From contig JAUCBJ010002827.1 of the NCBI GenBank assembly GCA_032718475.1, positions 1 through 64,000 on the forward strand: a stretch of 64,000 nt of DNA, read 5' to 3'. The notes beneath the pieces are model-generated. The model was not told the DNA's origin, ran no database searches, and saw only the letters and a list, made by a program, of their open reading frames with translations. Of the stretch, positions 12,303-47,945 are shown piece by piece. Source of the stretch: Nemertoderma westbladi. Its lineage: Eukaryota; Animalia; Xenacoelomorpha. Each line of letters opens with the position of its first letter. Within the stretch, counting starts at the first letter, position 1. Both the position numbers and the translations under genes were made by a program.

Positions 12303-12337
12303 CTTCGAACCGAATTGCTCTCTCAAACACAGTAACT

Positions 12338-20849: not shown

Positions 20850-21318
20850 TGTCATAATGAAGTGGTAGTCAAATTTTACAAATGTAAAATCGGCCTCATA
20901 TAGAGAAACTACTGCGTAAGAGCCAAAACGGATTTCGACCAAATAGATCAACAATAGCTCAGATACTTGCACTATGGAGACTGATTGAAGGAATTAAGTC
21001 AAAGAATCTCCCAGCAGTCATGACTTTTGTGGACTTCAAGAAGGCATTCGACTCCATCCATTGTGTTAAAATGCTTGAAATCCTATGAGCTTATGGAATA
21101 CCAGAAGTAATTGTTGCTGGCATTGGATTGTTATATTGTGACACAGAAGCAGAGGTACTCTCTCCAGATGGTGAAACTGAGTTTTCTCAATCCTGGCTGG
21201 CGTACTGCAAGGTGACACATTAGCACCATTACTATTTGTAATTGTGCTGGATTACGCAATGAGGATGGCCACAAAGGGTGAAGATCTGGGATTCACACTT
21301 CAAGAACGCAAAAGTAGT
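20850..21318 (+). mobile_element. RTE-clade LINE, 5' part (RT remnant), interrupted by BEL element 2
   Basis: Translates to QNGFRPNRSTIAQI, FVDFKKAFDSI, GVLQGDTLAPLLF...LQERKSS and continues after 36376. Confidence 0.85.
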
Positions 21319-22566
21319 TGTACGCGCTTTTGAAGACCTTTAGCAGTTTAACCTGCCAAAATTTGTATGTCTTTTGGTTTATAAATAGACTTTAGAAGTT
21401 GACAAATATTTAATACCAATAAACACAACATTAGCAGAAGCCAGCCTAGTGCGCGTCCATTCACCCGCTGGATATACCCGGGAGACTGGATTCTGAGGGC
21501 TTAGATTATTATTGCAGTGTAAGCTTACTGTATTATTCGATTGATCGTTAATAAATAATTTCTGACTAATATTATTCACTTTCGGGAAATATTAACAGTT
21601 CCTTTAGGACGTGGCGCTCTATCTAGGTAAACAGAGATATGACTTATACTAATCACAACGGTAAGTCGGTAAGGCTTATGATTCACGTATGAGGCGCATT
21701 CTTTAGGAAATGCTTAGTTATCAGTCACAATCAGGCACACTACCGGTAACACACAATACGGCTCACTAATTTGCCGACCGTCAATGAATTTTATCATATA
21801 TAAAGAGAACAGCAACGGACTCATGTAGTGCTTATCAAATAGCATTAAATTCACTACAAACCACAATAATATAAGTCGCAATCGCTATATATAACCCGTC
21901 TCTCTAACCTGTAGTGTATCAAGAAAATTGGGAAATTTGGGTTCTTTATAGATATTCTCCAAATAATATTCAACCAAACAATAGTAAATAGCAGTATAAT
22001 AATGTATATTGAACCGATAATGTAAAACTGAATTGCGATCAGTTGATATGATAAGATAACAGTTATACGCTCTATAATTTAAGCCTACTAATGTTTCTTC
22101 TAAAGTATGAAAACGAATTGACTCTAGAGCCGGTGTTCCTGGCCTAGATAGCAACAACACAACAGTATCAAGAAAAAACAGTAAGACTGAACACTCCTAG
22201 TATGATCGGCCGAATATCTCCACATCGACAGAAAAAATCGCTCTGATTGGCTTAAGCTAAACAAAGAACCATGTGTCCAATGGCTGTTCCCATGTCAGCA
22301 ACCAGCTGTTAGATGTCGTAATCTGAATCATCAAGGCTAAGCTGTGTAAAGGTATTTGGTGCATTGCGGGTTTTTTGCCTTACCATGTCCGCCAAAACAC
22401 GTATATAGAAGAATGACTTTTATGTCCGTTAAAACACTTATAACGGTACCTCGCGGGCGAGGGGAATATATATATAGTTAGAGAGCCTTTTAGAGTATTC
22501 CAGCGCCTGGGGGGAAACTGGATTGCGAAGCAAAGGGGCCAGTTATATCCCACAGAAGCTTTTACA
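21319..22566 (-). repeat. 3' LTR of BEL element 2 (1248 bp)
   Basis: Near-identical to 35129-36376. Confidence 0.96.
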
Positions 22567-22644
22567 CCGCTCCCAGAAAATGGGATTTGAGTCTATAAAA
22601 TATACAAAATCACAGTTTCTAATATACGTAAATACTCTAAACAG

Positions 22645-25600
22645 TTAGTCTTTCTTGCGCGGACGGCGTTTACGCAGTTTTTTAAAGCTAGCCAGAGTCC
22701 TTTTCTCTTTGGGGCGAGCCACTTTACAAGGAGGGCTATAACTCCTGGGTGAAGGGTGCAATATGATTGCATCAGAGGGTGTAGGATTATGGTCGGTGTA
22801 TCCGCCAGTCGAAGTACCGGGTTGATTGACATCAACGTCAGGGGAGAGAGGTCTAACGGCTTTGAGAGCTCGTTTCAAGACAGCCGCTCTTACGGGTCCT
22901 TTACGAGTGGTCTGAACGAGGGCCGTGGGTGGACCATAGGCAGTTAGAAACCTCCGGGGTTTAATGGTCCTTTCCAACTCGTGTTCGCGGGCTCGGTATT
23001 CGTAAGGCCGTCGATATACTTCCTGTAACTCGGGGTGTGAGTTAACAAACAAGTCTCCATAGTCCGGATCCTGACGGATATAATTGATTAAGTTATAGGA
23101 ATGAAGGTCGCTAGGATTAACACTCCTGAGAAATTTGCGTACGAATTTGGTTGAAATACATTCTCCGACGCGCTTCAGTAGCTCGTAACTTGATATGCGT
23201 GATTTCTGTTCAACCGAAGCGAATAGATAAGGATGGAACGCATAAACTCCTTCGTAAGCGCGTCCGGGATAATAGCGATGGCGCGAATCACAATGTAAAT
23301 CAGCGTTCGCTTCCCAAGCTCTGATGTAACGTAGTGTGATCATTTCATCTACGCTTTCCAAATCGTGATTAAAAGGGCAATCGAAACTGGCATATCCCTT
23401 TAGTTGACAATGGTGACATTGAGTCATAAATTGAGGGCAAACCGCAAAGATATGCAAGTTATTGAGTCTGCAATATGCGCAATAAATTTCCATAGTCGGT
23501 TGTTCTTGGAAATAGGAACAGCGGACGTTGGTGTCCATGGGCGTATCGTGGTCTCTCGATGCGCATAACCGACAACGTTGCCTAGAAACATAGTTGGCAT
23601 GTCGATAATCGTACGCAGTGAGACACTGTGGACCTTGATACCATTCTATGATGTAATCGTTGTCGCTGTTCCGGGGCGCGATAGGCTGAATCTCTTCAGA
23701 TTCTAGACATATTGGTTCGTCTTCCAAGTGCATAGCTGAAGTGGGCGCGTCTGTCTCTTCAGGTGGACCTATTGTCTGAATTTCCACGACAGAATAACCT
23801 GTGGGGATTCGAGGTCTTTGTATAACAGAGGAGTGCAAGTTCGATATACAAATCTCTTGGAAAACGGCGAATCCAGCGCTATCCAACTTCTCTGCAGCTG
23901 AGTTTCTTAGGCTGAGCTTGGTCAAAGCGCGGTCTTTAAATTGGCTATCCACGTTGCGGAACGGGGTTAAAAATCGCCGGAAACATTCGAAACGGATGAA
24001 TTTATTATGTTCATCTAGCTTAGCGAGTTTGGTCCCAAGTATTAATGGATGGGCGCGTATAGTACGACTGCACACATCGGCTAGCCAACCGGCAAGTGCG
24101 GTGTTTTCAAAGATCGTGTATATAGCTAAGGAGGGACGGAGTGGAACACTCATGAAGCTATACACGGCGCCAGGTGCGGTCAATGGTCCATCAAAGTATA
24201 ATCGAGAATAATGGTCTCCGTATACTTGTTGATAGTTAATGGGATTTCCGACTTTGAAATTCCATCCGTATTCCTGAAAGGCAAGATGTCCGATGGAAGT
24301 TCGTTGCACCTTTGTAATGTTGCTAGACGTATTAGCATACATAGTGCGGAAGAAACCTCGACCTTCTGCCCAGGGAGCAATCAGCTGAGTATCAACGAAA
24401 GGGTATGGAATGTTCTCCATATTCCGAAAGTCGTTTTGGAGATCTCCATAAACAGCTGAGCCGATTTTAAGGATTCTTTCATTGAACAACATCTCGAGTA
24501 CGGGCTGGGGTAACATCGATCCATCGATGCCCATGGCCGGTTTGCGTTCGGTGTCAATGAAGTAACGCTGCGCGAGTTCGAATTGTCCATGTCGGAGATT
24601 CTTTTGTGTTTCAGTGAGAGTTTCAAAAGAATAATCAATCACGTCGGAACACGCTCGAGTAAACACGTGGGTAGAACCAGCTAATCCGCGTATGTGGATC
24701 ATGCGCGTAGTTCCTAGTTCTCCGACCGGAACGCTACCTTCATTATCGTAGGTGACAACTCCATACATCTCAATAACATTAAGAGTTTCATTCCACTCCT
24801 TGGTGGCGTTCTCTAGGGTCATCCCTACTGGATGCCACAAGGTGGCGCATTGGTTAGCGTCAGGGAGATCACTATACTTCATATGCCGAGTGGTATACGT
24901 CTCCACATTTCCATATCTTTGTATTTTCTCTTCTTCAAATAATACATCTAGATTCCAATGGACTAATCGAGTTTTAATAAATCCATCGAGATTATAAGGA
25001 GGTTCTATATCTTTCTCGATTCGAGAAATGTTATATGGTTTTCTAAATGAGTTTACCTTTACTAACTGATCCAGATGTTTCTGCAATTGTTCGAGTTCGA
25101 CAATGTCTAGAGGATTTATTAGTGGTAGAAACTTTAAATTATGTGTCGGGTCTTCTGGTTTTACCATATAATATTGAGTCAGATTAACGTAATAAGGGTG
25201 GTCTTTAATCCCATAAAACGAGTTCTGTAAAGGTCTAGCGCGTATGTTGACATCGTGTACCATACGACGGACAAGATCCGCTCGATTGTCCGGAGGTTCA
25301 ACGAGTATACCGTCAACACGAGCGGCCTCGATCGGCGGACGCTGTAACATAGGGGCGTCAGCGATAAGATTTTGCGATCCTGTACTGATATCAACCGGTT
25401 GAGGTTGTATCGTCGCGAAGAGCTTGTCCCCGAAATGTGGAATCATCGAGGGATGACGAACGGTTTTAGAGTAGAGGTCCGTCATGAGGATTTGAGCTTC
25501 CGGTTGGGCTAAAGCGGCTTCTTCTCTCTCTTCCAGTTTCGTGTGTTTCTCTTCGAGTAGATTTTCTTCCGCTTGTCTCTGTAAGCGTTCATCTAAAAAT

Positions 25601-26898
25601 TCTTGTAGAGAATACGTGCGTCCAAGCTCGATGTCTTCCTCGAGGTTTTGGATTTCTCTATCGAACTGTGGCAAGGCTAACTCCTTCACCGATTGGACTT
25701 GTTGTTGTAATTTACGTTTCTCTAAACAATCTTGTGTTCCCTTTCCGATTTTCTGTCGAATGGCGTCTAAAGCGTTTCTTATAACGCTCTCCTCGACTTC
25801 CGTGGCGGGTTGCATCGGGTTTAATCCTGGACGATTGTAAGGATCAAAGGGCGATATTAGCTGCCCGCGTCCCAATCCGGCTAAGTAGGATGGGCGGATG
25901 TCTAACGAACCCACTACCGGAGCACCACCGATTAATTGTTCGGGTAACACTAAGTCTTTGAACAGGGAATATAGTTCGGGAGGATCAGTGATACTGTTAG
26001 GATCAAGAGTTTGAGGTCTCACTAGGGAATGAGGAGGCCTGACCGAGTATTCCGGAACTCTGATCATGGGTTTATTCAGTGATCGTTTAAGACGAGCGAT
26101 CGTGGGTGGTATGTCGAACAGGTTTCGCTCGAAACTCCCGTAAGTGTAACACGTAAAACTATGTTTAGCGCAACGTCTCCGCGGATGTTTGTGTCTTTCA
26201 GTTTGTTGGTTGGGTCTAGGGCATTCGTCACAATAATACCAAAGACGTACGTCCTGTAGAGGAAACGCGGGTGAACGTTCTCCAGTTTTGCAATATTCTT
26301 CCATTTGTTCAAAACTATCCGGGATAACAGGTAGTGGACGATCGGCGGTAAGATACATCATAGTGAAATAGAGCCGTTTGAGTTCTACCACAGGGTCGTG
26401 ATGTATACCTTGAGGATATCGAGTCTCTAAGTTCTGCTGACTAGCGATGTTGAGATAGGTTTCTCTCAAAAATTCTAGGTATTCGTTGAAGTCGATGCGT
26501 TTATCCGGTTCTTCAACGTTTTCTCTTTCCAGTCTATTACGAATAGAATTTTCGTGATCTATTCTCGGTTTATCGTTACGACTCCGCTGGGTATGATATT
26601 TAAATAGAACCATTTCCCTCTCTGTATCTACATCGTCCGTATCATGTAAATCGATAGGATGGCCGGTCGTTAAGAAGTCCATATACGTACCATTACGATT
26701 CGTATAGCGAGTGGTGAATTTTCGATAGTCCAATTCACGCGCAAGTTGCTCTTGGGACATCGGCGGTTCGATATAACGACCATCGTCCTCCGTAATGGTT
26801 GGATCGGCTTCACCGCGTATTAAGCTATCCACAAATGCTTGTAAAGGTAGAGTATATCGCTCCCTAATACCAAGATCATCTTCTATCAACTCCGTCAT
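22645..26898 (-). CDS. Accessory ORF: 1417-aa protein with DEDDy-type 3'-5' exonuclease-like domain, three CCHC-type zinc knuckles, coiled-coil and basic C-terminus
   Basis: ExoI VVTYDNEG (~24736-24759); ExoII LPQPVLEMLFNERILKIGSAVYGDL; FVDTQ; ExoIII-like PLRPSLAIYTIFEN. Knuckles CRLCASRDH..C, CAYCRLNNLHIFAVC and CHHCQLKGYASFDC (~23375-23580). C-terminal KKLRKRRPRKKD. Confidence 0.8.
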   Translation of the reverse strand: MTELIEDDLGIRERYTLPLQAFVDSLIRGEADPTITEDDGRYIEPPMSQEQLARELDYRKFTTRYTNRNGTYMDFLTTGHPIDLHDTDDVDTEREMVLFKYHTQRSRNDKPRIDHENSIRNRLERENVEEPDKRIDFNEYLEFLRETYLNIASQQNLETRYPQGIHHDPVVELKRLYFTMMYLTADRPLPVIPDSFEQMEEYCKTGERSPAFPLQDVRLWYYCDECPRPNQQTERHKHPRRRCAKHSFTCYTYGSFERNLFDIPPTIARLKRSLNKPMIRVPEYSVRPPHSLVRPQTLDPNSITDPPELYSLFKDLVLPEQLIGGAPVVGSLDIRPSYLAGLGRGQLISPFDPYNRPGLNPMQPATEVEESVIRNALDAIRQKIGKGTQDCLEKRKLQQQVQSVKELALPQFDREIQNLEEDIELGRTYSLQEFLDERLQRQAEENLLEEKHTKLEEREEAALAQPEAQILMTDLYSKTVRHPSMIPHFGDKLFATIQPQPVDISTGSQNLIADAPMLQRPPIEAARVDGILVEPPDNRADLVRRMVHDVNIRARPLQNSFYGIKDHPYYVNLTQYYMVKPEDPTHNLKFLPLINPLDIVELEQLQKHLDQLVKVNSFRKPYNISRIEKDIEPPYNLDGFIKTRLVHWNLDVLFEEEKIQRYGNVETYTTRHMKYSDLPDANQCATLWHPVGMTLENATKEWNETLNVIEMYGVVTYDNEGSVPVGELGTTRMIHIRGLAGSTHVFTRACSDVIDYSFETLTETQKNLRHGQFELAQRYFIDTERKPAMGIDGSMLPQPVLEMLFNERILKIGSAVYGDLQNDFRNMENIPYPFVDTQLIAPWAEGRGFFRTMYANTSSNITKVQRTSIGHLAFQEYGWNFKVGNPINYQQVYGDHYSRLYFDGPLTAPGAVYSFMSVPLRPSLAIYTIFENTALAGWLADVCSRTIRAHPLILGTKLAKLDEHNKFIRFECFRRFLTPFRNVDSQFKDRALTKLSLRNSAAEKLDSAGFAVFQEICISNLHSSVIQRPRIPTGYSVVEIQTIGPPEETDAPTSAMHLEDEPICLESEEIQPIAPRNSDNDYIIEWYQGPQCLTAYDYRHANYVSRQRCRLCASRDHDTPMDTNVRCSYFQEQPTMEIYCAYCRLNNLHIFAVCPQFMTQCHHCQLKGYASFDCPFNHDLESVDEMITLRYIRAWEANADLHCDSRHRYYPGRAYEGVYAFHPYLFASVEQKSRISSYELLKRVGECISTKFVRKFLRSVNPSDLHSYNLINYIRQDPDYGDLFVNSHPELQEVYRRPYEYRAREHELERTIKPRRFLTAYGPPTALVQTTRKGPVRAAVLKRALKAVRPLSPDVDVNQPGTSTGGYTDHNPTPSDAIILHPSPRSYSPPCKVARPKEKRTLASFKKLRKRRPRKKD

Positions 26899-27711
26899 AT
26901 CTGCTATCTGAGTTTATTAATATCAAATAAGTTTATATTTAGGCGAGCGGGCGTCGCTGCCTACTTCTCTTTGCCCCCGGACAGTGGGATTCTCAGCGCC
27001 GATGTACCGTCGTCGCGGTGTTTACGCCAACATGTAGCAACAGCACGACAACGATAACTGGCACAAGTCACTCCACTGTCCGTCCCAAAGGCTTGGATCC
27101 ACTTAGGTTCTTTCTATAGGAGAGTTGGGCTACTTTTACAATTGCGACTAGCTACTGTAAACATACTTTAGCAGTAACATTCACCTATAAACGCACAAAT
27201 TCCACACAACTGTCACCAACTGCACACATACAGGCCATTTGTCCGTTAGTCAGTGCCTTCCAGAATGTCACGTTATTACTGTGTATCCTTGGATACTAGC
27301 AGTGTGCTATATTCTCTATGCTATGCAATGGGACAAGCTTTCTATTGTTCTTTTAACTTGCTTCTAATTCTAGCGTGGGTGTTGCTATGGTGACATTATG
27401 GAATGCTAGCGGTAGAATTAGGGTAATTCTCATGCATACAGATCTGGGATGCTATTTAATAATAATTCTTTAATTGTCAATATCCTCTTTATGCATGATT
27501 TTATTAATTTTATCGGCTATTGACTATATGTTGGAGATTCTCGCACTCTAATACACTCAATAGGATGAATCTCCGCTCCCATGATCTATTAATTAATGGA
27601 ATTTTGGGAATGTTATAAATTGTACAAAATGACAATTTATGAAATTCATTTAAAATATGAATTTAAATTTATTCCCGTGAATTTTATTATTTGATGTTAA
27701 AATTGACACAA

Positions 27712-28523: not shown

Positions 28524-30062
28524 TCACGTTGGGGAGTCCCTAGATGTTTGAGGAATTAGGGAGGTGGTCGTGGGAAGAGTGTCTTGCCTTCCATAGTTTC
28601 CAGAGAGTTCTCTGTCTCTTTCCAGTAAACATAAACGACCAACTGGGCGATTGAGTTGTTGCGTCTCAAAGATTATGCCTGGCTTCTTGAAGTTACGCCG
28701 CATGACGACAAGTTCTACTGAGCGCACTAAACCATCATCCGAGATGTGAGTCTCGATGATACGACCTGTCTGCCACCGTTTACGTGGGAGGTCTGGATCT
28801 ACAATAAGCACCATATCTCCGGCGCTGACGTTTTCTTGCTGCGCAAACCACTTAGTTCGAAGTTGTAGCGTGGGCAGATAATGTTTCTCGAAATGGTCAG
28901 CAAAACGACGGGATAGCAACTGCATAAGTTGCCAAGTTCGACGGCAGTATTCGTCTCCGTCGGCAATCTCCGATCGTGGGAGCATGGCTACAGGTTTCTT
29001 CAGTAGGAAGTGCGCGGGTGTTAGCGCTTCCAGGGAATCGGGACTCGATGAGACTGGCATAAGCGGTCTCTCGTTGAGATAGGCAGCAATTTCCTCCATT
29101 AATGTCCGCAAAAGTTCGTCGGTGAGATACGCGCGGCATGGCACTATAAAGTGAAATGCGGTTTTGACACTTCGAATTAATCTCTCCCAACTTCCTCCCC
29201 ACCAAGGGGCGTCGGCGGCATTGAAGGTCCAGCTAGACGCTGTTATCCTTAGCTGGTCGTCCACCTGTCTTTGGTTCCAGTCCTTCACGTAAGCCTGTAT
29301 TTCGTTGTTGGCACCAATGAAGTTCGTTCCCTTATCCGATCTCATGGTATTACTCGTCCCGAAGCGAGCGATCTGTCGTCGTAAACTTAAGACGAAGCTG
29401 TTGGTAGATAGATCGTTCACCATATCGAGATGGATGGCTCTACAAGTCATGCACACGAAGATGACACACCATCTCTTGACTATAGTCCTAGCACGATATA
29501 CTTCAATAGGGCCAAATAAATCTACACCAGTATTAGTAAAAGGTGGTTCATAGAAGCTTACTCGTTCCCTAGGTAATTCTGCCTCTCGCTGTGTTAAAGG
29601 CCTACTGAATGCCTTCCTACAGGGTATGCAGTTCCTAAGAACTTGGTTCAGAGCTCTACGGGGTTTATCAAAATAATAGCGAGTTCGAATTTCGCTAAGA
29701 ATTCGTTCTCTACCAGCATGATAAAGTTTACTGTGAACATCTACAATCATCTTGATTTGTACATCAAGATTTCTAATAAGTATGGGGAATTTGGTGTCAA
29801 AGGATAAGGGCGCATTGGTGAGTCTTCCTCCAACACGTATTAACCCATCTATCATTGTGCTCGAGAATCGATCCCTTAAGCGCATCTGCGGATTTCTCAA
29901 CAACAGGAAATACTTTTCGGAATCCTCATAGCATTGCAGGAGTCTCAGTATCTGCTTATTGGTTTCTTCATGTTCCTGGTGACTAATTTTATCCTTTAGA
30001 AAACGGTCAGATGTCTTATATTTGGGTAAATTTTTAATAACATGAACGTGTGCAGATGTCAA
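28524..30062 (-). CDS. pol: BEL/Pao integrase
   Basis: HSKLYHAG...CIPC zinc finger; PFTNTGVDLFGP; SDKGTNF; APWWGGSWERLI; C-terminal domain ending RPVGRLCLLE. Confidence 0.93.
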   Translation of the reverse strand: MTSAHVHVIKNLPKYKTSDRFLKDKISHQEHEETNKQILRLLQCYEDSEKYFLLLRNPQMRLRDRFSSTMIDGLIRVGGRLTNAPLSFDTKFPILIRNLDVQIKMIVDVHSKLYHAGRERILSEIRTRYYFDKPRRALNQVLRNCIPCRKAFSRPLTQREAELPRERVSFYEPPFTNTGVDLFGPIEVYRARTIVKRWCVIFVCMTCRAIHLDMVNDLSTNSFVLSLRRQIARFGTSNTMRSDKGTNFIGANNEIQAYVKDWNQRQVDDQLRITASSWTFNAADAPWWGGSWERLIRSVKTAFHFIVPCRAYLTDELLRTLMEEIAAYLNERPLMPVSSSPDSLEALTPAHFLLKKPVAMLPRSEIADGDEYCRRTWQLMQLLSRRFADHFEKHYLPTLQLRTKWFAQQENVSAGDMVLIVDPDLPRKRWQTGRIIETHISDDGLVRSVELVVMRRNFKKPGIIFETQQLNRPVGRLCLLERDRELSGNYGRQDTLPTTTSLIPQTSRDSPT

Positions 30063-30075
30063 TGGAGCGTTATCA

Positions 30076-31035
30076 CTAGTGGTCTTCGTCCTGGAGTAGT
30101 GATGATGAAAACATCGTCTTTAAATATGTGACGGCTTTACAGAGCCGATTCCAGGAACTGTAATGATGCATTGCTCTCTGCAGCATGGGTGAGATTCCTT
30201 GCGAGACGTCTGGTATTCCAGATTTCCAATCTCTATCTCTAATTTCCACAACAGACTTATTTGTGTTGAGGGATTGTGGATCCGAAGCATCATTCCCGGA
30301 AGTATGTAATACAGATAGATCGATAGTCGGTTTAAATAACTTCGATTTACTCGCCCGGGTTTTAGGTTTGACTGTCTCCGCTCCCTTGGCTTGTCTAATC
30401 TCCGCCGTAGTAAGGTGAGGAGGCCATTCATCCTCTTCCTTGTTCAGGAAGTCGGGTCCACCCAACCAATCTGGAGTATCTATCAGTTCCTGTGGAGTTG
30501 CTCCCCTGGAGGCGATATCGGCTGGATTAATCGTACCAGGGCAATGTCTCCATTGATCTATCTTTGTGCGACTAAGAATAATAGCTACTCTGTTAGTAAC
30601 AAAAATGCTGAACTGACAGACTTCATTGGTTAGATACTCCAACACGAGTAAAGCGTCAGTCCAATAAACCGTTTTCTCCAGTGGATAGTCGATTTGTTCC
30701 GTTACGTTCCGGCCGATGGCTGTAGCGTATAAAGCCGCCTTTAACTCCGCTCGAGGAACCTTTAACTTGTTGTTAATCAATGCCTTAGAGGTAACCAAGG
30801 CGACTTTGATTCCATCCGGAGTTTCGACTCGCAGATATGCTACTATACCTATTCCCATGTCGCTGGCGTCTCCAAACACATGGAGTTGATAAGAATACGT
30901 AGGAAGAACATGGCCAAAATATGCACGAGAAATTATAAAGTTCTCGATGGCAGGTAGAGAATCTTCCCATTTCATCCATTTCTTTAACAATTCTCCCTTA
31001 AGCGGATCGTCCCATGAGTGGTTTTCAAGCCACAT
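30076..31035 (-). pseudogene. pol: BEL/Pao RNase H region (Pao peptidase A17-type), out of frame with the integrase
   Basis: SWDDPL, LHVFGDAS, PRAELKAA, WTDA, FVTNRV and WRHCPGTINPADIASRG motifs. Confidence 0.9.
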
Positions 31036-31043
31036 TTGTTGTA

Positions 31044-32894
31044 CTAAACTTCGACCGCCGAAGCGGGAGTCGCCAACATTGTAGCGGGCTGACGCGGGAT
31101 GACAGGAGACAAATCTTTGATTTCTCTCTCAGATTCCAGGACAGGGATATTCTCATGGACTGTTCTACCGGGTACAGGCAGTGTAGTACTGTGTAAAGGG
31201 AACTTAGAGTTAAGCTCTGGAAGTACAGGGGTCTCTAGCACAGGAGTGACTTTGGGAACGACAGGCCTAATTATTTCAGGCTCATCAACTATAGTAGGGA
31301 GTTTTTTGACCTTAATAATTTGGTCTGTAGGTTCTATTCTACTTAAGTCTGTGCTAGCTAGTTGTCTTCTCACAGCTGAGGGCAAATCAGGCAATTTGTG
31401 ACGGTAAGATGTTTTTCTACGCCTGCTTAGACGAGATCTATTTCCTCCGCCTTCAGGATCGGTGGTTTCGCTTTCCTCCGATGACGTATATCCCTGGCGT
31501 TTGGGAGTAGATCTTCTCATCATCTGCATGTGACTAGCAGTTAACTGTTTATTTATGTTGTCTTGCGTCTCTTGCAGATTCTCCAACTCCAGTTGGGTAG
31601 TCTCCTCAGAGGCTCTCCATTCTGCTTCTGCCACTGCCTTTGCTGCTTTTCTTTCTGCTTCTGCTTCTGCCTCCGCTGCCTTTCTTTCTACTTCTGCTTC
31701 TGTCATGGCCGCCGCCTTTTTTTCCTCTATCCGTCTTTTCTTTACTTCTTCTTCCTGGACTCTAGCGAGGCGAAGTTTTTCATCAAATTTAGCTTGGTTT
31801 GCAGCTAACATTTCAGCATCGATTGAGTCTAACACACGCTGGGTTCCTTCACTATTAGGGGAAAGTCCAGACAGCCGTCTCCTCAACTCTTCGTCTCCTA
31901 GGAAACGCTGATAGTCGGACAGATAAATGTCGATGGCGTCTCTCGTTCGTGGTCTCTCTGCGGTCTCTTCGCCTTCCACTTGAGAAAGGGTGGCATCGGT
32001 TGGTTCTTCATAGGTTAGTCTCTCAGACAGCTGGGATTTCCACTGGTCCGTTTCTTGTACTTTGAGACCTACCCGCTGGAACCAAGTTTTGACAGCAACC
32101 TGCAGCGACGTGTCCTGTCTTCTTTTGGAAGTTTCCTCAAAGGCTGATAGGATTAGTCTAATGCGTAGGGTTCTTTCACGTACTTGATAAAGCAGCTCTT
32201 CCTGCTCTTGAGGTCCTTGGGGTTGTCGAAACAATTGTTCTTCCAATCGCTCTAAGGAGCCGAAGAATCCCTGCACATATCCTGCTGCCGACCTCTTCCA
32301 AACAGCTGGATCCATCGTATCTTTAGCCACTCCCATCCTGTGTATATCTTCCCAAGTAGCCTCGGACAAATCTAACGGGAGTCCGGGTCCGGGAAAGTTC
32401 CATTGTGACTCGACAACAGACATCAATTCTCCCCTGGCGTATCCCGCATAATTATCTTGGGTCGCGCTCATACTTCTCGCCCAATCGGCTTGATGTTCTT
32501 CCACCGCAATCAATATAGTAGTTAGTACTGCGGCAGGAAGGGTGAGAAGGGGGTCCGAGTAGGCTGTAGCCGCCATCTGCAATCCGCATTCGGGGGTCAG
32601 CTCTACAGTATCCGAACTACTGGAGCTATCTGATCGCTGGGAACAAGTTTCTTGACTAGGATGTTGCTGCTGTTGGACAGCTGCTTCCTGGTTCCGCTTG
32701 ACTTGGGCCCGAGTGCCGATGATAGACCTACGGTGTTGGATCAGCTTAGGGTCTGATACTACTACTGGAGGGATGACTTTTCTTTCAGTAGGAGGTGAGC
32801 TGAACTCCTTTCTTAATCGCTCCACACTCCTATCTGTGTCACAGATGGTTGTATCGATTAGACTGTCTGACAGGTTTTGCTGGGTGTCAGACAT
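31044..32894 (-). pseudogene. gag: N-terminal part of Gag, truncated by an internal deletion that removed the Gag core, protease and RT
   Basis: 616-aa charged/coiled-coil ORF at the gag position, joined at ~31040 directly to the RT-RNase H connection. No protease or YVDD motif is visible anywhere in the element. Confidence 0.7.
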
Positions 32895-32974
32895 GTTTAG
32901 CTATACAGTTGAATGCTTACTGCTATAGTTACAGTTAAAGCAAGTCTAGTAATTCAGTATGACCGTTGGCCTAG

Positions 32975-35065
32975 TACCGGTAATTTATTACAGTATATTA
33001 GAATACCGGTATGCACTTATAATATATATAAGTATTGTAAACTAGTTTTGTCACAGAGTACCGGTATATAAATTTAGCACAAATATATATAAATATATAA
33101 TAGGCCTATCGTGAATACCGGTATACAGCTTACACTTATAGTATATATAAGTATAATTATGAACTAGAATTAATTACAGAATACCGGTATGATTTTAGCT
33201 CAAATTTATAGAAATAAATATAATAAGCCTATGGTAAATACCGGTATGTCAATTATTTTAGAATAATTGAATTTCTGAATATTTTAGGGTTACTTGGTTA
33301 CTTTAACTTACTTTATTACCGTTATTTAAGCAGTAGTCCAACTGATATTGAGACCTAGTTGTTGTATGGCAGGCCTACTATTTATAAATCGTTTGAGTTG
33401 ATTTATAATAGATATATACCCGTTTAAAAATGGGTTTTGTCAATATTTGAAATAAATGTTATTATTTCTGGGGGGTCACTACACAGAAGCTGTGCGCTCT
33501 CAGTGGAGTGCTACTTATGGGACACTAAAACAGATAATTCTAATTTACCTAAGTTACTTAATACTACAAATTACTTACGATACGGGTGAGATTAAATCTC
33601 TAATTAAACACAACAAAAATATTATGTACGAATTTTTAGGGTAATTTTACAGGAAGTCTACAAACCAGCCTAACAAAGGGTTAGAATTCTGGTTATTCTA
33701 TCGGACAGGGTACTACGGTATTTAAAATAATAAGTAGTAGTAAATATATTGCGCTGTCCAGATAGGAAAATACCACCGCCTGACGACCTATAGCCGTATC
33801 GCTATAGGTACTACGTTATGTATCACGGAGTGTTCCTACCTGGAAGTTAGTTACCGCGGACTACCAGATCCAGCGTGCCTATTAACCACTTTACAACACA
33901 AATATACTGCCTACACACTAATTACCTCGGAAAGCACTGTACACTAAACCCTAAATTAGGTACAAATACTGGTACAACAAATAATCAGTAGTTAAATATA
34001 CTTGAACAGTTAAAAGAACCACGGCATCTGCTGGAGTGACCGAAGCACAAAGTCACCAGTCTTTTCCTACGCCAAGCAGCCCATGTAGTACCGGGGTTAA
34101 TTTAACTATAACGGTATGTGTAACAAGCACAATTACTGTAGGAATAAACTTGGGGACACGAATGTTGCGAATAATCGCATAAACTCTGAATAATAAATAT
34201 TACGCTACCCATACAGAATACTCAAACAAAATACAAACCAAACGCTGGCAGACTACCACCAAGCCCAAATAAACTACCGTACGTGTAGATTCCGAAATGG
34301 TTAGTTAGTATGCGTTCTAACACGGTAGTACGACTTATTCTTTAAGAGGGGATTGACCTTACAGCTATGGCTGCCCCAACTTACTAACTGGCACTTTATC
34401 AGACAAACTCTACACACGCAGCAATCTCTTCAGACCTAATAATAGCTAGACAACAATCCAGCCTACAAAATATCTGAGTAATAACTATTACGGTACCTGA
34501 ACAGACCACACAAACAAACACAGGCCAAAACGTTGGCAGAATACTGTCAAGCCTAAATAAACTACAGTATGTGCAGATTCCAAAATGGTTAGTTAGTATG
34601 CGTTCTAACACGGTAGTACGACTTATTCTTTAAGAGGGGATTGACCTTACAGCTATGGCTGCCCCAACTTACTAACTGGCACTTTATCGGACAAACTCTA
34701 CACACGCCGCAATCGCTCCAAACCCAACAACAATCTAACAACAGTCCGGCCTACAATTATCTGAACAATCTGAGCAGACTTACACGTCTTCAGCTCAATA
34801 TTAACTTACTAGGAAATAAAACTGACAGAAATAAGTAAAGTCTCAATAAAAAACCAGGGCTGCAGTCCCTGATTAAATACTAAGACCTACTGGTATACAA
34901 TAATCAAAATCGAATAATACTAATGTACTTATACTGGAAGTACCGGTTAGGACAGTTGGGCCTACGGACCTACAGAAGTACCAGTTCTGGCAGTTGGGCC
35001 TACTGACCTACAGAAATACCGGTTCTGGCAGTTGGGCCTACTGACCTACAGAAGTACCGGTTCAG
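32975..35065. repeat. Repeat-rich 5' leader of BEL element 2
   Basis: ACCGGTAT units spaced ~60 bp apart (32975-33250), a ~190-bp direct duplication (~34235-34420 and ~34525-34710), and three ~37-bp units CAGTTGGGCCTACTGACCTACAGAAGTACCGGTTC (34950-35065). Confidence 0.8.
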
Positions 35066-35128
35066 GTTTACCGGTCGACCGGTACTTTCAACTTTATTGC
35101 TTACTGCAATAAAGACAATAACTGTTAT

Positions 35129-36376
35129 TGTACGCGCTTTTGAAGACCTTTAGCAGTTTAACCTGCCAAAATTTATATGTCTTTTGGTTTATAAATAGAC
35201 TTTAGAAGTTGACAAATATTTAATACCAATAAACACAACATTAGCAGAAGCCAGCCTAGTGCGCGTCCATTCACCCGCTGGATATACCCGGGAGACTGGA
35301 TTCTGAGGGCTTAGATTATTATTGCAGTGTAAGCTTACTGTATTATTCGATTGATCGTTAATAAATAATTTCTGACTAATATTATTCACTTTCGGGAAAT
35401 ATTAACAGTTCCTTTAGGACGTGGCGCTCTATCTAGGTAAACAGAGATATGACTTATACTAATCACAACGGTAAGTCGGTAAGGCTTATGATTCACGTAT
35501 GAGGCGCATTCTTTAGGAAATGCTTAGTTATCAGTCACAATCAGGCACACTACCGGTAACACACAATACTGCTCACTAATTTGCCGACCGTCAATGAATT
35601 TTATCATATATAAAGAGAACAGCAACGGACTCATGTAGTGCTTATCAAATAGCATTAAATTCACTACAAACCACAATAATATAAGTCGCAATCGCTATAT
35701 ATAACCCGTCTCTCTAACCTGTAGTGTATCAAGAAAATTGGGAAATTTGGGTTCTTTATAGATATTCTCCAAATAATATTCAACCAAACAATAGTAAATA
35801 GCAGTATAATAATGTATATTGAACCGATAATGTAAAACTGAATTGCGATCAGTTGATATGATAAGATAACAGTTATACGCTCTATAATTTAAGCCTACTA
35901 ATGTTTCTTCTAAAGTATGAAAACGAATTGACTCTAGAGCCGGTGTTCCTGGCCTAGATAGCAACAACACAACAGTATCAAGAAAAAACAGTAAGACTGA
36001 ACACTCCTAGTATGATCGGCCGAATATCTCCACATCGACAGAAAAAATTGCTCTGATTGGCTTAAGCTAAACAAAGAACCATGTGTCCAATGGCTGTTCC
36101 CATGTCAGCAACCAGCTGTTAGATGTCGTAATCTGAATCATCAAGGCTAAGCTGTGTAAAGGTATTTGGTGCATTGCGGGTTTTTTGCCTTACCATGTCC
36201 GCCAAAACACGTATATAGAAGAATGACTTTTATGTCCGTTAAAACACTCATAACGGTACCTTGCGGGCGAGGGGAATATATATATAGTTAGAGAGCCTTT
36301 TAGAGTATTCCAGTGCCTGGGGGGAAACTGGATTGCGAAGCAAAGGGGCCAGTTATATCCCACAGAAGCTTTTACA
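35129..36376 (-). repeat. 5' LTR of BEL element 2 (1248 bp)
   Basis: Near-identical to 21319-22566 and followed by TSD GTAGT. Confidence 0.96.
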
Positions 36377-37186
36377 GTAGTAGATATCCGGCAACTACAG
36401 TCACAGACACCGACTTTGCGGAAGACATCGCCCTGCTCTCTAATACGCTAACAGATGCACAGCTTCTACTAAATAAAGTAGAGAGGGCTGCTAAGGAGGT
36501 TGGATTGCATATAAATGCTACCAAGACTGAATTCATGACCTTTAATGTTGATGGAAACTTGACAACAATTGATAATGGTCAACTAGGGAGGGTCGGCGAC
36601 TTCCAGTACCTTGGATCATGGATAGAGAGTAGCAAAAAGGACATATAAGTTAGGAAAGCAAAGGCTTGGGTAGCTCTCTCAAAAATGGATACCATCTGGA
36701 AATCAGATCTCTCCAGGCACCTGAAGACTAAGTTCTTTCGAGCCATAGTGGATAGTGTATTTTTATACGGGGGTGAGACCTGGACACTGACTAAATCACT
36801 TGAACAACGAATTGATGGTTGCTACACAAGACTACTAAGGGCAGCCCTAAACATCAGCTGGGGACAACACATGGCAAACGCCGAGCTTTATGGTACAATA
36901 CCACCTGTATCAACCACCCTCCGTGAACACAGATTAAGATTCAGTGGGCACTGCTGACGAAGTAAAGACGAGGTCATACCAAATCTACTTTTCTGGCAAC
37001 CAACTCATGGAAAGCGTAGTTGTGGACGACTGGCCATAACATACAGTATATAGATCAACTTGAAAGGAATACTGAACTTGGGTGAAACGAAATTGCGACA
37101 ACTATTGAGAATCGGGAAGCCTGGAAGGATCTCATTTCCACTATCCGAGTTTGCTCGACCTAGTAGTAGTACAGTAGTAGTTGTAG
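36377..37186 (+). mobile_element. RTE-clade LINE, 3' part
   Basis: SRYPATTVTDTDFAEDIALL, GLHINATKTE, FQYLGSWI, LYGGETWTL and RLRFSGHC; ends in a (TAG)n-like tail at ~37161-37186. Confidence 0.9.
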
Positions 37187-40934: not shown

Positions 40935-43809
40935 TTCTTGAAATATGGGGTATTAATTTCAAAGCCAGCTGCCATTTTATTAGCCACTGATTTTTGATAA
41001 TCAAAATTCTTCATAGCCTGCGGCACATGCTCCGCCAAGAAATCTCTGAATTCTCCCCGATTCTCCGGCGTCCACCTGTCCAAATACCTCTGCGTATTTA
41101 TCACTCCGGCATACGACGCCGCCTTCGACACCTCCTGATAGGTAAACGGAAGTCTCCATTTTATAATCTCCAGGTGGGCCTCTTGGTTGATATTAAAGAA
41201 TGGCCTTCATCCGCTGTCGGGTCATGGTACCGACGTCAGCCCACTCCTCGAAGATCCTAAACTTCTCCTCGTCGTCCATCCAGTCGCACTGGCGTCCGTA
41301 GTGCCCCCGGAAGTTGCACTTAGAGCACCGGTTGTGCAACCGTGGACACGCCCCCATCCTATGACTCGACTCGCGGCAGTAGAGACAGCTAGTCCCCTTT
41401 TGGAATTGGTACAGGCAGTTCCTTTCCTGGTAAGTTTGCCTCCCGCAGTAATCGCAACCGAGTACCAATGCCTCCCACCCCATGTCGTCTTTCCTCCCAA
41501 GCGATCTCCTCGGTCTATGGAGTCGCTGGTAAGCGAACTTCTGGACGTTAGCGTCCCTGTCCACGTCTATCTCCTCGCCCCTCCTGGGCATCGTCTCCCC
41601 GAATACTACCCATGGTGCCATTCCCGGTTGCTCGCCCAACCTGATGGTGCTCCCCGCGAAATCCATCGCTGGCTCCTCATGCACCCAGGCCCGCTTGCCG
41701 GGTCTATCCCAGAAGGCCCTCGCCCCGCTGGCCATCACCACTCTCCCGCCAACCCAGTCTGTGCCCGATTGGCCGATCCTCCCAATGGGCGGCATCTCTC
41801 CGAACTCGTCGTCATCCTCGTCTTCCTCAGGGAGTGGTTCCAATCCCGGTAACCCGGTGGATCCACTGTGTCCCTTCCCACCTTGGCTCTCGCCCATGAT
41901 TCTCCATCCTTCCAGCTCCCCCGGCCTCCTCTGCACGAAATCGCCCTCGGCGCCCGCTGGTATGGGTGTCACCTGCAATCCCGATGTCGACTGTTTCGGT
42001 GACCCTACCGTCCACCCCAACTCTCGCCCTAGAGACTCGCCCGAACTCCCTGATGATGTCCAACGAAGTTCGTCTAAGGCCGCCTGTTCCTCGAACCCGT
42101 AGCTCTCTGCTCTGGCTGCCTCCTCCCTTTCTTCTGCCTCTCTCCTTTCTCGTCTAGCGATTTCTTCCAATCGCTTCTCTTCTCGTCTATCCGCCTCTAG
42201 CTGCTCCCACCTCTGATATGGCGTATCCGCATCCCTGTCTACTAGATGTCGGCAGTTATAATACACCGACTCGCCCTTCAGCCCCGGGTGGTCTACCAGA
42301 CCCTCGAAAGCCACTCTGAAGGCTCTTCTGTAGTTCAGGGGTGATCCCGATAGCAGGAATGCTGTTGGTTCTCTCTCGATAACCACGGTGATGAATAGGT
42401 TTAGCAAACCTATCATTATCCAGTCCTCCTGCAGGATATATCGCTTCTGATATACCTTTATCGCTCCTCTCCGGAATTGATACACCTCTTGCTTCCCCGG
42501 CCTCGCTCCCCACTTCAGCGAGTTTGCCAACTCCGCTCCGTACTCCTCCCTGATTTTACCCCAGTCCATTGTTTGTGGCATACGAGTCCCATTAGCTGGC
42601 CCATCGCCACCGCTCCACAATGGCCCGCGTTCTCCACTAGTCCCAACCCGTCTGGTGCCATCATAGCCATGTAGACCGTTTGCGTATCCAGGAGGTTGGA
42701 GGTCTCCGGACCGATGATCCTCTCCGCATCGTCGCGGATCGCCGATCCCACCTTTATCGTCGACTTCTCCCTTACTAGACTCTGCACCGCTTTCGGCAGC
42801 CGGTTCAACTTCGGTCCGTTCTTCTTCCCATACGTTCCTAGATCGAACAGGAATATATCCCCATTTGGCGCGGCCAAATGCAGGAGTATGGTTCTGGCCG
42901 ACCCCGCCGACCCTCTTCTCGAACCTTCCTTGTCTTCCACGGTCCCCTCATCGTCTAGGACCATGTATCCTCCCCTGCTGACGGACTCTACGAACCTCTT
43001 CCAATCCTTTCTCGGTGGCTCCTTTGCGTACTTCGGTATCCCGAACTTCGCCTCGTCTCCCTTCACCATGTAGTGGAAATGCTCGAAGATCGCATTGTCT
43101 AGCGACGGTGTCCCGTAGGTCCCGACCAGTCGCTGTTCGTGCACCTCCCTGAAATGGTCCTGCAGCGCTCGCGCTTTGTGACCCCTCTCTAACCGCTCGT
43201 AGTATCCCCTCGTCTTTTCTTCCGGATGCCTCTCGGTGAAATCCACCAGTATCTCCTTCCCTCCCAACTCCGCCTTTCTCTTTCTGACCAGTTCTCCGCC
43301 ATTTCGAACTTTCCCGATCGCTCACCTATAAGATGGGGCCTTGCCAAGGCACAATATAAATGAGTGATGTGGTTTGGATGGTCTGTACTGTCCGATAATG
43401 GCCTATCTCTCACTGTATGTTAGGTTATCGCCTAATTTTCCTACCCTAATTTCCTAAAAGTGCCAAATTCTGCTAAATTTCGTAATTCTGTCCGTTACTT
43501 AAATTATGTTCCAGAATATTTCTCCTACTGTTACCATAATTTGTCTAATTTTCTATTTTTATTTAATTTTAATATTTAATTTTATCCTACAACTGTATTA
43601 TCAATATCTGCTAATGGATTATTCTACTTTATAATCCATATTCTAGCCTACTCTATGGGCCTGTGCAGTACAGCAGTATGTATCGCGTGGCCTACACGAT
43701 TTATCCAGCTGTACCCACGTGCCCCCCTCTCGCTACCTACCACTAACTCTACTAACTTTCCAACTGATTTCTACTAATTCTTACCATATACTATATTATA
43801 CATATCCTC

Positions 43810-44345
43810 CTACCACTAACTCTTACTACTAACGGTACTATACGTACCCTCTCACTAACTAACTCTCCAACTAACTCTTACTAACCGGTACTACGTACCC
43901 TCCTACTACTAACTAACTCTCCAACTAGCTCTTACTAACCGGTACTACGTACCCTCTTACTAACTAACTCTCCAACTAACTCTTGCTAACCGGTACTACG
44001 TACCCTCCTGCTACTAACTAACTCTCCAACTAACTCTTACTAACCGGTACTACGTACCCTCTTACTAACTAACTCTCCAACTAACTCTTGCTAACCGGTA
44101 CTACATACCCTCTTACTAACTAACTCTACTAAGGGTACTACGTACCCTCTTACTAACTAACTCTACTAACGGACTACGTACCCTCTTACTAACTAACTCT
44201 ACTAATGGTACTACGTACCCTCTTACCAATTAACTCTACTAATGGTACTACGTACCTTCTTACTAACTAACTCTACTAACGGTACTACATACCCTCTCAC
44301 TAACTAACTCTACTAACGGTACTACGTACCCTCTTACCAACTAAC
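43810..44345. repeat. Minisatellite (~37-55-bp units built on CTAAC(C)GGTACTACGTACCCTCTTACTAACTAACTCT) between integrase and accessory gene
   Basis: About 12 tandem units are visible directly. Confidence 0.9.
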
Positions 44346-44449
44346 TTCTATCTGCCTACTTACCTATTGCGTATCTACTATGTACTATTACTTTCCTTTA
44401 TCTTTCTTTCTTTCTCTATTATTTTTAATTTTATTATTTTTTTTATATA

Positions 44450-47940: not shown

Positions 47941-47945
47941 TGGTA

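Follow-up and report, generated by a model that had tools for sequence, protein, structure and literature searches.

A candidate self-primer in the LTR of a BEL/Pao element without a TGG-type primer-binding site

Introduction

The choice of primer is a defining replication step of LTR elements: it determines the LTR boundary and ties the element to the RNA metabolism of its host. According to the ICTV profile of the Belpaoviridae (Semotivirus), the genome is 4.2-10 kb long, the LTRs measure 0.2-1.2 kb, and an 18-nt site serves tRNA-Arg or tRNA-Gly as primer (PMC8742986); the statement in our first-pass annotation that BEL elements are normally tRNA-primed agrees with this. Tf1, as described in PMC6317226, is self-primed by an 11-nt stretch of its own LTR transcript that is complementary to a site beside the 5' LTR.

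The locus examined here, element 2 of a 64-kb window (the whole stretch of DNA that was analysed), raises the question of which RNA primes its minus-strand DNA. We consider it about an even call that element 2 plausibly uses a piece of its own LTR transcript, and not a tRNA, for this purpose; for this single copy the evidence for self-priming is suggestive and not decisive.

Boundaries and coding content of element 2

Element 2 is a minus-strand LTR element of 15,058 bp with LTRs of 1,248 bp each. The LTR limits were set by the repeat pair (21318-22566 versus 35128-36376, 99.52% over 1249), by base-by-base comparison, by the TGT...ACA ends and by a 5-bp ACTAC duplication. Its main features are as follows.

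21314..21318, minus strand: target-site duplication ACTAC, downstream copy (sequence comparison)
21319..22566, minus strand: 3' LTR, 1248 bp (repeat pair and base-by-base limits)
22567..22574, minus strand: short polypurine-like tract GGGAGCGG adjoining the 3' LTR
22648..26913, minus strand: 1422-aa extra ORF downstream of the integrase, with CCHC-like knuckles
28527..30119, minus strand: 531-aa integrase ORF (Integrase_H2C2, DUF5641)
30079..31128, minus strand: 350-aa ORF, RT-connection/RNase H part of BEL/Pao pol (Peptidase_A17)
31047..32900, minus strand: 618-aa first ORF in the gag position, no Pfam family
35129..36376, minus strand: 5' LTR, 1248 bp, TGT...ACA (repeat pair and base-by-base limits)
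36377..36381, minus strand: target-site duplication ACTAC, upstream copy (plus strand GTAGT, reverse complement ACTAC)

The two LTRs differ at six positions (LTR positions 63, 115, 128, 328, 807 and 1202). These few differences and the intact target duplication indicate that the copy is young and properly integrated, and therefore that its priming site was functional recently.

Pfam matches to Peptidase_A17 (E 7.8e-27), DUF5641 (E 2.1e-20) and Integrase_H2C2 (E 1.1e-7) were found in the element, and its integrase has 701 homologues, the best at about 40% identity; among those listed, all carry DUF5641 and most carry H2C2. Judged by these pol and integrase domains, element 2 belongs to BEL/Pao (Belpaoviridae), and the same domains, being BEL/Pao-specific, place it outside the Tf1/sushi clade, whose pol groups with Ty3/gypsy and whose integrase usually has a chromodomain. 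The terminal features of BEL/Pao are likewise present, namely TGT...ACA LTRs, a 5-bp duplication and a purine tract before the 3' LTR. In tblastx comparisons with the BEL/Pao elements 1 and 3 of the window, homology begins at element position 5321, in the 350-aa ORF, and only short ORFs lie between the 5' LTR and the 618-aa ORF. Neither an ORF nor a Pfam match for a protease or a reverse transcriptase was found in element 2, which must therefore be copied by others.

An LTR segment complementary to the sequence after the 5' LTR

On the sense strand, the last bases of the 5' LTR, ...AAAGCGCGTACA, end at 35129, and ATAACAGTTAT comes next. That no TGG comes after the LTR, as the first-pass annotation had claimed, was borne out: there is none within 0-5 nt of the LTR end, and the first lies about 128 nt downstream, inside a tandem repeat. 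No tRNA gene was found in the 64-kb window. Only 2 of the 11 nt of the site are G or C (18%), a composition unlike that of nuclear tRNA, for which the site would be very A+T-rich.

35118..35128, minus strand: ATAACAGTTAT, 11 nt that occupy the primer-binding-site position and adjoin the 5' LTR
35866..35876, minus strand: putative self-primer ATAACTGTTAT in the 5' LTR, exact complement of the post-LTR site, LTR positions 501-511
22056..22066, minus strand: ATAACTGTTAT 11-mer, 3' LTR copy

The exact complement that had been claimed for each LTR is indeed present (35876-35866 and 22066-22056), and in the register described, with the 3' T of the primer-like 11-mer pairing with the first base after the LTR. 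The complementarity covers exactly 11 bp, with the flanking base unpaired on either side, and ATAACNGTTAT has no exact occurrence in the 64 kb beyond the three sites.

Several controls gauge how often such a complement arises by chance. Of 12552 internal 11-mers, 7 have an exact reverse complement in the element 2 LTR; of 48943 11-mers elsewhere in the window, 14 do on one strand and 28 on the other. After dinucleotide shuffling, the LTR held a complement of the site in 28 of 20000 trials. The control frequency of an exact 11-mer complement is thus 0.03-0.14% overall. Element 2 also scores as a predicted self-primed element under the looser computational criterion published in PMC6317226 (a complement no shorter than 10 bp whose start lies 0-5 nt from the LTR), for which false positives with the element 2 LTR numbered 60/12512, 332/48861 and 394/48861 (0.5-0.8%). 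The complement exceeds chance, at about 0.001-0.008 before correction for the three elements inspected in the first pass.

When the whole LTR was paired with the first 12 leader nt, the best duplex was this same 11-bp pair, which was equalled in 3 of 300 shuffled leaders; with the first 20 leader nt, 5 of 300 equalled it. The corresponding duplex of element 1 in the window was equalled by 160-176 of 300 shuffles, and that element did not score as self-primed. A search for split (GT...AG) complements returned none better than the contiguous match in element 2 and none in element 1. An extended duplex around the 11-mer (-26.6 kcal/mol) was considered and set aside as not special, since other LTR segments reach -30.1.

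Sequence context and predicted folding

Three palindromic features open the leader, and a single candidate polyadenylation signal lies inside the LTR.

35115..35131, minus strand: palindrome of 17 nt, ACAATAACAGTTATTGT, that extends across the LTR end and includes the 11-mer
35092..35114, minus strand: leader hairpin CTTTATTGC-AGTAA-GCAATAAAG, 9-bp stem, containing AATAAA
35069..35084, minus strand: perfect 16-nt palindrome TACCGGTCGACCGGTA in the leader
35219..35224, minus strand: ATTAAA (LTR positions 1153-1158), sole poly(A)-signal hexamer of the LTR

The caution that the 11-mer is quasi-palindromic was well placed, and extends further: the 11-mer is also the core of the 17-nt palindrome across the LTR end, itself the first of three consecutive leader palindromes. 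The stems take up 50 of the first 75 leader nt, which is matched by 3 of 600 windows of element 2. Because the 11-mer is the core of this palindrome, its exact complement in the LTR is also a 10/11 direct copy of the motif.

Two properties of the pair count against self-priming. The 11-mer duplex is weak (-10.1 kcal/mol), and the LTR 11-mer is located 737 nt from the post-LTR site. The predicted fold depends strongly on where the RNA begins: for an RNA starting exactly at the 11-mer, the two segments pair with probability 0.95 or 0.11, according to the 3' limit chosen; with 21 extra nt at the 5' end this falls to 0.03, and with the whole LTR to 0. We found no TATA box 30 nt upstream of the LTR 11-mer, in line with the caveat that none was visible at the expected distance. 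A TATA-like TATAGAG lies 10 nt upstream of the 11-mer and would place the transcription start just downstream of it. The position of ATTAAA would imply a U5 of about 70 nt. An Rfam scan of the LTR and leader gave two sub-threshold chance matches only.

How the 11-mer might act can be outlined by analogy with Tf1. LTR-derived RNA carrying the 11-mer would anneal to the site, acting in cis or as part of a second, co-packaged molecule. An autonomous relative would provide the reverse transcriptase, whose RNase H would cleave immediately 3' of the 11-mer, and synthesis would proceed from the freed 3' OH through U5 and R. In this scheme the primer does not have to coincide with the first 11 nt of the RNA; any start upstream of LTR position 501 would suffice.

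Family copies and distant relatives

The family of element 2 is highly repeated, as judged from contig depth (16080 contigs of run X1). Within the LTR 11-mer, no variant at a frequency of at least 10% was seen in 365 contigs of run X1 and 12 of run X5, and the post-LTR site showed no variant among the rows listed. Directly 3' of the LTR 11-mer lies the following zone.

35847..35865, minus strand: 19 nt rich in indels and substitutions when family copies are compared, adjoining the 3' (sense) side of the LTR 11-mer

An invariant 11-mer beside an indel hotspot would fit a constraint that ends at the cut site, and provides weak evidence for one. Since no such variant of either 11-mer was seen in the contigs and one element copy is readable, there is no covariation signal, which counts against self-priming. 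No joint linking the two 11-mers was found in the sequencing-run contigs. None of the runs that cover this stretch is recorded as RNA. Run X4, which we guess to be RNA and which carries another organism label, gave 125 contigs over 34600-36500 and 0 over 35800-35950.

Scans of wider contig collections returned no family copy or close relative. A 20-nt LTR-end pattern had 0 matches in viral contigs; its 2 matches in metagenome contigs were dismissed as chance (contigs of 58-62% G+C that BLAST did not match to the window). In genome contigs, a conserved LTR pattern of 22 nt had 0 matches, and scans of viral contigs with the integrase protein and with an integrase alignment were likewise negative.

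We compared five distant BEL/Pao loci with readable LTR-leader junctions (L008, L011, L014, L017 and L024). Three of these (L014, L017 and L024) have TGG sites, which counts against self-priming; L008 and L011 have none. In 0 of the five is there a contiguous LTR complement of at least 8 nt to the post-LTR site. The 14 nt that follow the LTR in L008 are exactly complementary to a joint of AAACGGT with TTTTTAC, a match reached by 0 of 200 shuffles; this joint would arise by removal of a predicted 318-nt LTR intron with a GTAAGT donor and a pyrimidine-rich TTGTAG acceptor. Its sister L011 has a homologous acceptor and a different exon-1 end (TGC) that matches a different site (...GGCA), giving a spliced-form complement of 11 nt (3 of 200 shuffles were as good). 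Matched differences of site and complement were seen only in this distant pair, in spliced form. Because the sites of L008 and L011 pair with predicted LTR splice joints, self-derived primers probably exist in the BEL/Pao superfamily. A 13-nt inverted-repeat scan of 23 loci gave isolated matches (L018, L023 and others) that could not be placed relative to an LTR end and were left uncounted.

The interpretation given in the first-pass annotation is supported in part. Its premises, the missing TGG-type site and the exact 11-bp LTR complement, are present in element 2; a tRNA-independent BEL lineage goes beyond what one copy can show, and this copy has no reverse transcriptase or protease of its own.

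Alternative explanations

The most serious competitor to self-priming, which we regard as possible but distinctly less probable, is that the complement is a by-product of the leader palindromes. The LTR 11-mer would then be a chance or motif-level second copy, and the true primer would be some other RNA of the host, for example a fragment of a tRNA or a mitochondrial tRNA. Three palindromes or hairpins make up the first 60 leader nt, and their role would be in dimerising the RNA, in packaging or in recognition at the DNA level. Such richness is equalled in only the 3 of 600 windows noted above, and the LTR 11-mer is also a 10/11 direct copy of the site. Promoter support for a start at the 11-mer is absent, the fold does not favour the long-range pair unless the RNA starts there, and the missing TGG in L008 and L011 indicates that odd sites are not rare in BEL/Pao. 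Those two loci nevertheless have LTR-derived complements themselves. The exact complement, moreover, is still rare in the controls (0.03-0.14%), its register is exact (offset 0), and ATAACNGTTAT is confined in the 64 kb to its three sites; no candidate host RNA is known, and so A+T-rich a site would be unusual for a nuclear tRNA.

The direct similarity of the two 11-mers can be read in another way, which we think unlikely: the LTR 11-mer would descend from the primer site, as a relic or duplicate in the same sense with one central change, and would not act as a primer. It could have originated if the LTR grew when priming shifted to a downstream copy of the site; alternatively, the two copies could be a repeated binding site for a dimeric protein. 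The repeat is 10/11 identical, and GCGTA precedes both copies with a 3-nt offset. When GCGTA and the 11-mer were taken together as an extended direct repeat, there was no excess over chance. Direct similarity upstream of the 11-mers is at chance level (1559 of 2000 shuffles score as well), a third copy is absent from the window, and the single difference between the copies is exactly the change that gives perfect complementarity.

The first-pass annotation had also suggested that a 3'-5' exonuclease encoded by the element trims the 3' end of the RNA back to the 11-bp duplex and so makes the primer. This idea, now very improbable, traces to the 1422-aa ORF, whose nearest clusters in the Atlas carry DNA_pol_A_exo1 and some zf-CCHC (score 0.88, 164 shared features, a lead only). 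The only relative found for this ORF is P0121 (E 1.1e-5), with which it has in common a K-[IV]-G-S-x4-D-L stretch that we take to resemble an Exo II motif. P0121 itself has no Pfam family. In the 1422-aa ORF, no Pfam family was detected at E up to 5, no PDB sequence matched, a search of proteins between 782 and 2489 aa long gave no relatives, and the AlphaFold model built from the sequence alone was unusable (pLDDT 31). An exonuclease domain in this protein is therefore a weak lead, and the trimming step lost its footing for want of Pfam, PDB or fold support. Trimming about 660 nt of R plus tail would, in addition, destroy the repeat required for strand transfer. According to what is reported from the Levin laboratory, Tf1-type RNase H cleavage needs no exonuclease, and the self-priming mechanism works without a trimming step.

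Comparison with known systems

Taken together with the spliced-form complements, self-priming of element 2 leads to a broader proposal, for and against which we see roughly equal weight: that some BEL/Pao lineages prime reverse transcription from their own LTR transcript, ready-made in element 2 or spliced from the LTR in L008 and L011. If true, self-priming would be recurrent in all three LTR-retrotransposon superfamilies and priming would be tied to host splicing; annotation tools that look for tRNA complements alone would misjudge the primer-binding sites of many BEL/Pao elements; and element 2, without a reverse transcriptase, would show that the primer is a cis-encoded feature usable with an enzyme supplied in trans.

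The closest parallel is with Tf1 and Tf2 of Schizosaccharomyces pombe (Tf1/sushi), in which, as in element 2, there is no tRNA site and an 11-nt LTR complement has its 3' end facing the LTR end. Tf1/sushi elements are Ty3/gypsy chromoviruses, whereas element 2 is BEL/Pao by Pfam. The distance from primer to site is short in Tf1, and Tf1-type primers are the first nucleotides of the transcript, at the start of R. In element 2, by contrast, 737 nt separate the site from the 11-mer, which is located 501 nt inside the 1248-bp LTR, and no TATA box is present at -30; element 2 lacks an active reverse transcriptase/RNase H enzyme set of its own, and cleavage there is putative.

In plants, Tcn1 (Ty3/gypsy) and TAR (Ty1/copia) are predicted to be self-primed by the identical criterion, according to Neumann et al. 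2019 (PMC6317226), and element 2 is picked out by it as well. The prediction for Tcn1 and TAR is lineage-wide in plants; element 2 is an animal BEL/Pao element, for which the prediction concerns a single copy. Half-tRNA priming, which the same paper describes for copia and for plant Osser, Bryco and Bianca, resembles element 2 in that no TGG directly follows the LTR (PMC6317226); half-tRNA sites match the anticodon-stem region of tRNA-Met or tRNA-Ile, while the site of element 2 is 18% G+C.

With canonical BEL/Pao elements, element 2 has in common Peptidase_A17, a DUF5641 integrase, TG...CA LTRs, a 5-bp duplication and a purine tract before the 3' LTR; it differs from them in having no TGG-type tRNA site, a length of 15.1 kb, no protease or reverse transcriptase and an extra 1422-aa ORF. 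In the literature combining self-priming with Pao, no description of BEL/Pao self-priming was found in the accessible portions of the papers, including PMC3601003, PMC5443660 and PMC6317226, the others being off-topic by title. The words PBS, primer binding and tRNA are absent from de la Chaux and Wagner 2011 (PMC3118150). Short pieces of the post-LTR sequences had 0 matches in the 7 supplementary files of an eLife 2026 errantivirus study, a weak comparison because the table there lists tRNA sites of another group.

The nearest counterparts within the superfamily are L008 and L011, which, like element 2, are BEL/Pao elements without a TGG and with a site predicted to pair with RNA derived from their own LTR. 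Their complement would form only after removal of an LTR intron and would lie about 74-133 nt from the LTR end (about 74 in L008), whereas that of element 2 is contiguous and far.

Structure and coding content of element 2

Element 2 is a 15,058-bp LTR element on the minus strand of the window, with the following features (window coordinates).

36376-35129, minus: 5' LTR, 1,248 bp, starting TGT and ending ACA
35876-35866 and 22066-22056, minus: LTR 11-mer, ATAACTGTTAT, one per LTR
35131-35115, minus: 17-nt palindrome spanning the LTR end
35128-35118, minus: the site, ATAACAGTTAT, the 11 nt directly after the 5' LTR
35069-35131, minus: three consecutive palindromes or hairpins that open the leader
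22648-26913, minus: intact 1,422-aa ORF, downstream of the integrase
22566-21319, minus: 3' LTR, 1,248 bp, starting TGT and ending ACA

The LTR pair is 99.52% identical across 1,249 aligned bases (6 differing positions), a 5-bp duplication (ACTAC) flanks the element, and a short purine tract (GGGAGCGG) adjoins the 3' LTR. Because of the near-identical LTRs, their TGT/ACA ends, the duplication and the purine tract, we conclude that element 2 is young and normally integrated. The insertion is hosted by highly repeated sequence (window 21100-21318 and 36377-36500) that resembles, as read by eye, a LINE-type reverse transcriptase on the plus strand (a GDTL..PLLF-like motif).

Pfam searches identified Peptidase_A17 in a 350-aa ORF and Integrase_H2C2 with DUF5641 in a 531-aa ORF; judged by these domains, the element is of the BEL/Pao class. 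Neither a protease nor a reverse transcriptase was found in it, and it resembles the window's other two BEL/Pao elements only from the RNase H part onward. ORFs in the 2.2 kb that follow the LTR are all short, and the 618-aa first ORF matches no family.

The first-pass annotation had proposed a co-encoded 3'-5' exonuclease, which the sequence searches did not confirm. The 1,422-aa ORF has no Pfam family, no sequence match in the PDB and no relative of similar length, and a single-sequence AlphaFold model of it was unusable. Among 1.84 billion representatives it has one distant relative, P0121 (E 1.1e-5), with which it shares CCHC knuckles like those of retroviral nucleocapsid and a stretch resembling what we take to be an Exo II motif. 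The Atlas links the ORF to DNA_pol_A_exo1 clusters (score 0.88, a lead only). Three CCHC-like knuckles lie close to its C-terminus, and the ORF also has a possible DEDD exonuclease-like stretch. An exonuclease function is thus possible for this ORF.

An exact complement at the LTR boundary

Pairing between the site and the LTR 11-mer extends over exactly 11 bp, and the 3' end of the 11-mer faces the base that immediately follows the LTR; the complement and register described in the first-pass annotation were confirmed in each LTR. Its statement that the site is not TGG also held: no TGG occurs close to the 5' LTR end, and the nearest downstream is ~128 nt away, within a 38-nt tandem repeat. 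The window contains no tRNA gene, and the G+C content of the site (2/11) is presumably unlike that of a nuclear tRNA.

An exact reverse complement in the LTR was found for 7 of 12,552 internal 11-mers of element 2 and, elsewhere in the window, for 14/48,943 and 28/48,943 11-mers (two strands); dinucleotide-shuffled LTRs contained the complement in 28 of 20,000 cases. When pairing was scored by a self-primer criterion given in Neumann et al. 2019 (at least 10 bp, starting 0-5 bp past the LTR; PMC6317226), 0.5-0.8% of control positions qualified with the element 2 LTR. In the 64 kb, exact occurrences of the motif ATAACNGTTAT are limited to the site and the two LTR 11-mers, and a pure chance origin of the complement is unlikely.

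Two earlier caveats were borne out. The site, described as quasi-palindromic, is the core of the 17-nt palindrome, which is directly followed by a 9-bp hairpin (with an AATAAA hexamer in its stem) and then by a perfect 16-nt palindrome that may serve as a dimerisation site. The expected TATA box is likewise missing 30 nt upstream of the LTR 11-mer; the closest TATA-like box (TATAGAG) lies 10 nt upstream, a position from which a transcription start just downstream of the 11-mer would be expected. The sole poly(A) hexamer within the LTR is ATTAAA at 35224-35219 (minus), from which we infer a U5 of ~70 nt. The pair appears in the predicted fold only when the LTR 11-mer is set as the start of the RNA. 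The 11-bp duplex is weak (-10.1 kcal/mol), and its G:U-containing extension is no better than those that other LTR segments form.

The element 2 family is highly repeated in public sequencing runs (16,080 contigs of run X1 on 34600-36500); the sequence collections searched yielded no family copy or close relative. Because no variant reached at least 10% in the LTR 11-mer (365 X1 and 12 X5 contigs, 35800-35950), the 11-mer pair is invariant in these runs, whose contigs are too short to span both 11-mers, and this neither favours nor opposes pairing. Across thousands of family copies, indels and substitutions are concentrated in the 19 nt just 3' of the LTR 11-mer (window 35847-35865). Here we observed an 8-nt deletion, 5- and 10-nt insertions, and a ~100-fold fall in summed contig depth.

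Putative priming sites of other BEL/Pao elements

An integrase alignment scan of genome contigs yielded 23 BEL/Pao loci (L003-L025). The contigs that carry them are assigned to MAGs of bacteria or archaea, among them symbiont bins and the record of a Wolbachia chromosome; these integrases are presumably animal DNA from the hosts that was co-binned or co-assembled with the microbial sequence. In a quick tree (stops read as X; L025 and window element 1 omitted), element 2 falls on a long branch without a resolved position, so these loci are not close relatives of it. The LTR-leader junction was legible in five of the 23 (L008, L011, L014, L017 and L024). Three (L014, L017 and L024) have a TGG site 0-4 nt past the LTR, which we take to match tRNA-Tyr; no TGG site was found in L008 or L011, which form a supported clade in the quick tree. 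Neither these five nor element 1 has a contiguous LTR complement, which argues that the signature of element 2 is not a general artefact.

The two loci lacking TGG sites have a different kind of complement, at the following positions.

L008:5072-5776: LTR (within the region L008:5072-5800)
L008:5378 and ending 5695: predicted intron donor and acceptor
L008:5777-5790: site
L011:7475-8315 with L011:183-193: corresponding positions in L011

The 14 nt after the L008 LTR are the exact complement of a joint, AAACGGT/TTTTTAC, that would arise by removal of a 318-nt predicted intron present in both LTRs (GTAAGT donor; TTGTAG acceptor with pyrimidine-rich tract); none of 200 shuffles reached this match. 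L011 has a homologous acceptor (CTTTCAG/CTTTTTAC) and a different exon-1 end (TGC/GTAAGA), paired by a correspondingly different site, GTAAAAAGGCA (11 nt, 3/200 shuffles), assuming an LTR end of ...GTCACA; the L011 donor lies in a stretch that is not provably LTR. Exon-1 ends and sites thus differ between the two loci in matching ways. The pol ORF of L008 is long and includes Peptidase_A17, rve and DUF5641. As read from these sequences, the pattern raises the odds that BEL/Pao lineages in which a TGG site is missing use LTR-derived primers. L023 (7152-7164 vs 7411-7423) and L018 (6830-6842 vs 7034-7046) each have a single 13-nt inverted repeat on the downstream side of the integrase, where LTR ends are not definable; one opens with TGG, one overlaps a TATA box.

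Element 1 (plus strand, window 11740-12330; LTR ending at 12302) has a good purine tract (AGGAGGGGAG), and after its LTR comes CTTCGAACCGAATTGC in place of TGG. This sequence resembles the TGG sites TGGTCCTTCGAGCCGGA of L014, L017 and L024 minus their first five bases, as if a tRNA-type site had been shortened on the LTR side; it has no LTR complement. Sequence downstream of its 3' LTR matches that upstream of its 5' LTR (window 11047-11279 vs 19163-19357, 93-96% identity), and the element appears to lie in a duplicated or repeated target. Element 3 (window 41000-52000, minus) has gag (DUF1759), protease/RT and integrase ORFs, with no LTR pair detectable within 36377-58000. A long open frame at window 3899-6856 (plus) encodes eight WAP four-disulfide-core domains, which indicate an animal host.

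Proposed priming mechanism and comparison with known systems

The sequence shows the lack of a tRNA-type site, the exact complement in register, a young copy and a missing reverse transcriptase. We give about even chances to element 2 priming with its own LTR-derived RNA. An LTR-derived RNA containing the 11-mer would anneal to the site, RNase H provided in trans would cut 3' of the 11-mer, and the cut end would be extended through U5 and R, with strand transfer via the LTR sequence downstream of the cut. Such a primer would not need to be the extreme 5' end of the RNA. The earlier variant, in which the element's own exonuclease trims RNA back to the duplex, is very improbable.

A less probable but substantial alternative is that the palindromic leader, or some other primer, explains the site. 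Of the 75 nt that open the leader, 50 lie in stems of this kind, a value reached by only 3 of 600 element windows. Because the site is near-palindromic, its exact complement also matches it directly at 10/11 positions, so that a motif present more than once, or a leader acting in dimerisation/packaging, is a real rival. That the LTR 11-mer is a relic or duplicated motif is unlikely: GCGTA precedes both 11-mers, but direct similarity upstream of them is not above chance.

For this single copy our confidence in self-priming is moderate. A search of full-text literature, as far as its texts were accessible, returned no description of self-priming in BEL/Pao elements. Element 2 belongs with canonical BEL/Pao elements by its proteins, but differs from them in having no reverse transcriptase and in departing from the family's stated tRNA-site feature. 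In its way of working it would instead resemble Tf1/sushi elements, in which reverse transcription begins from 11 nt of the element's own transcript, and the predicted Tcn1/TAR self-primers, while standing outside all of those clades.
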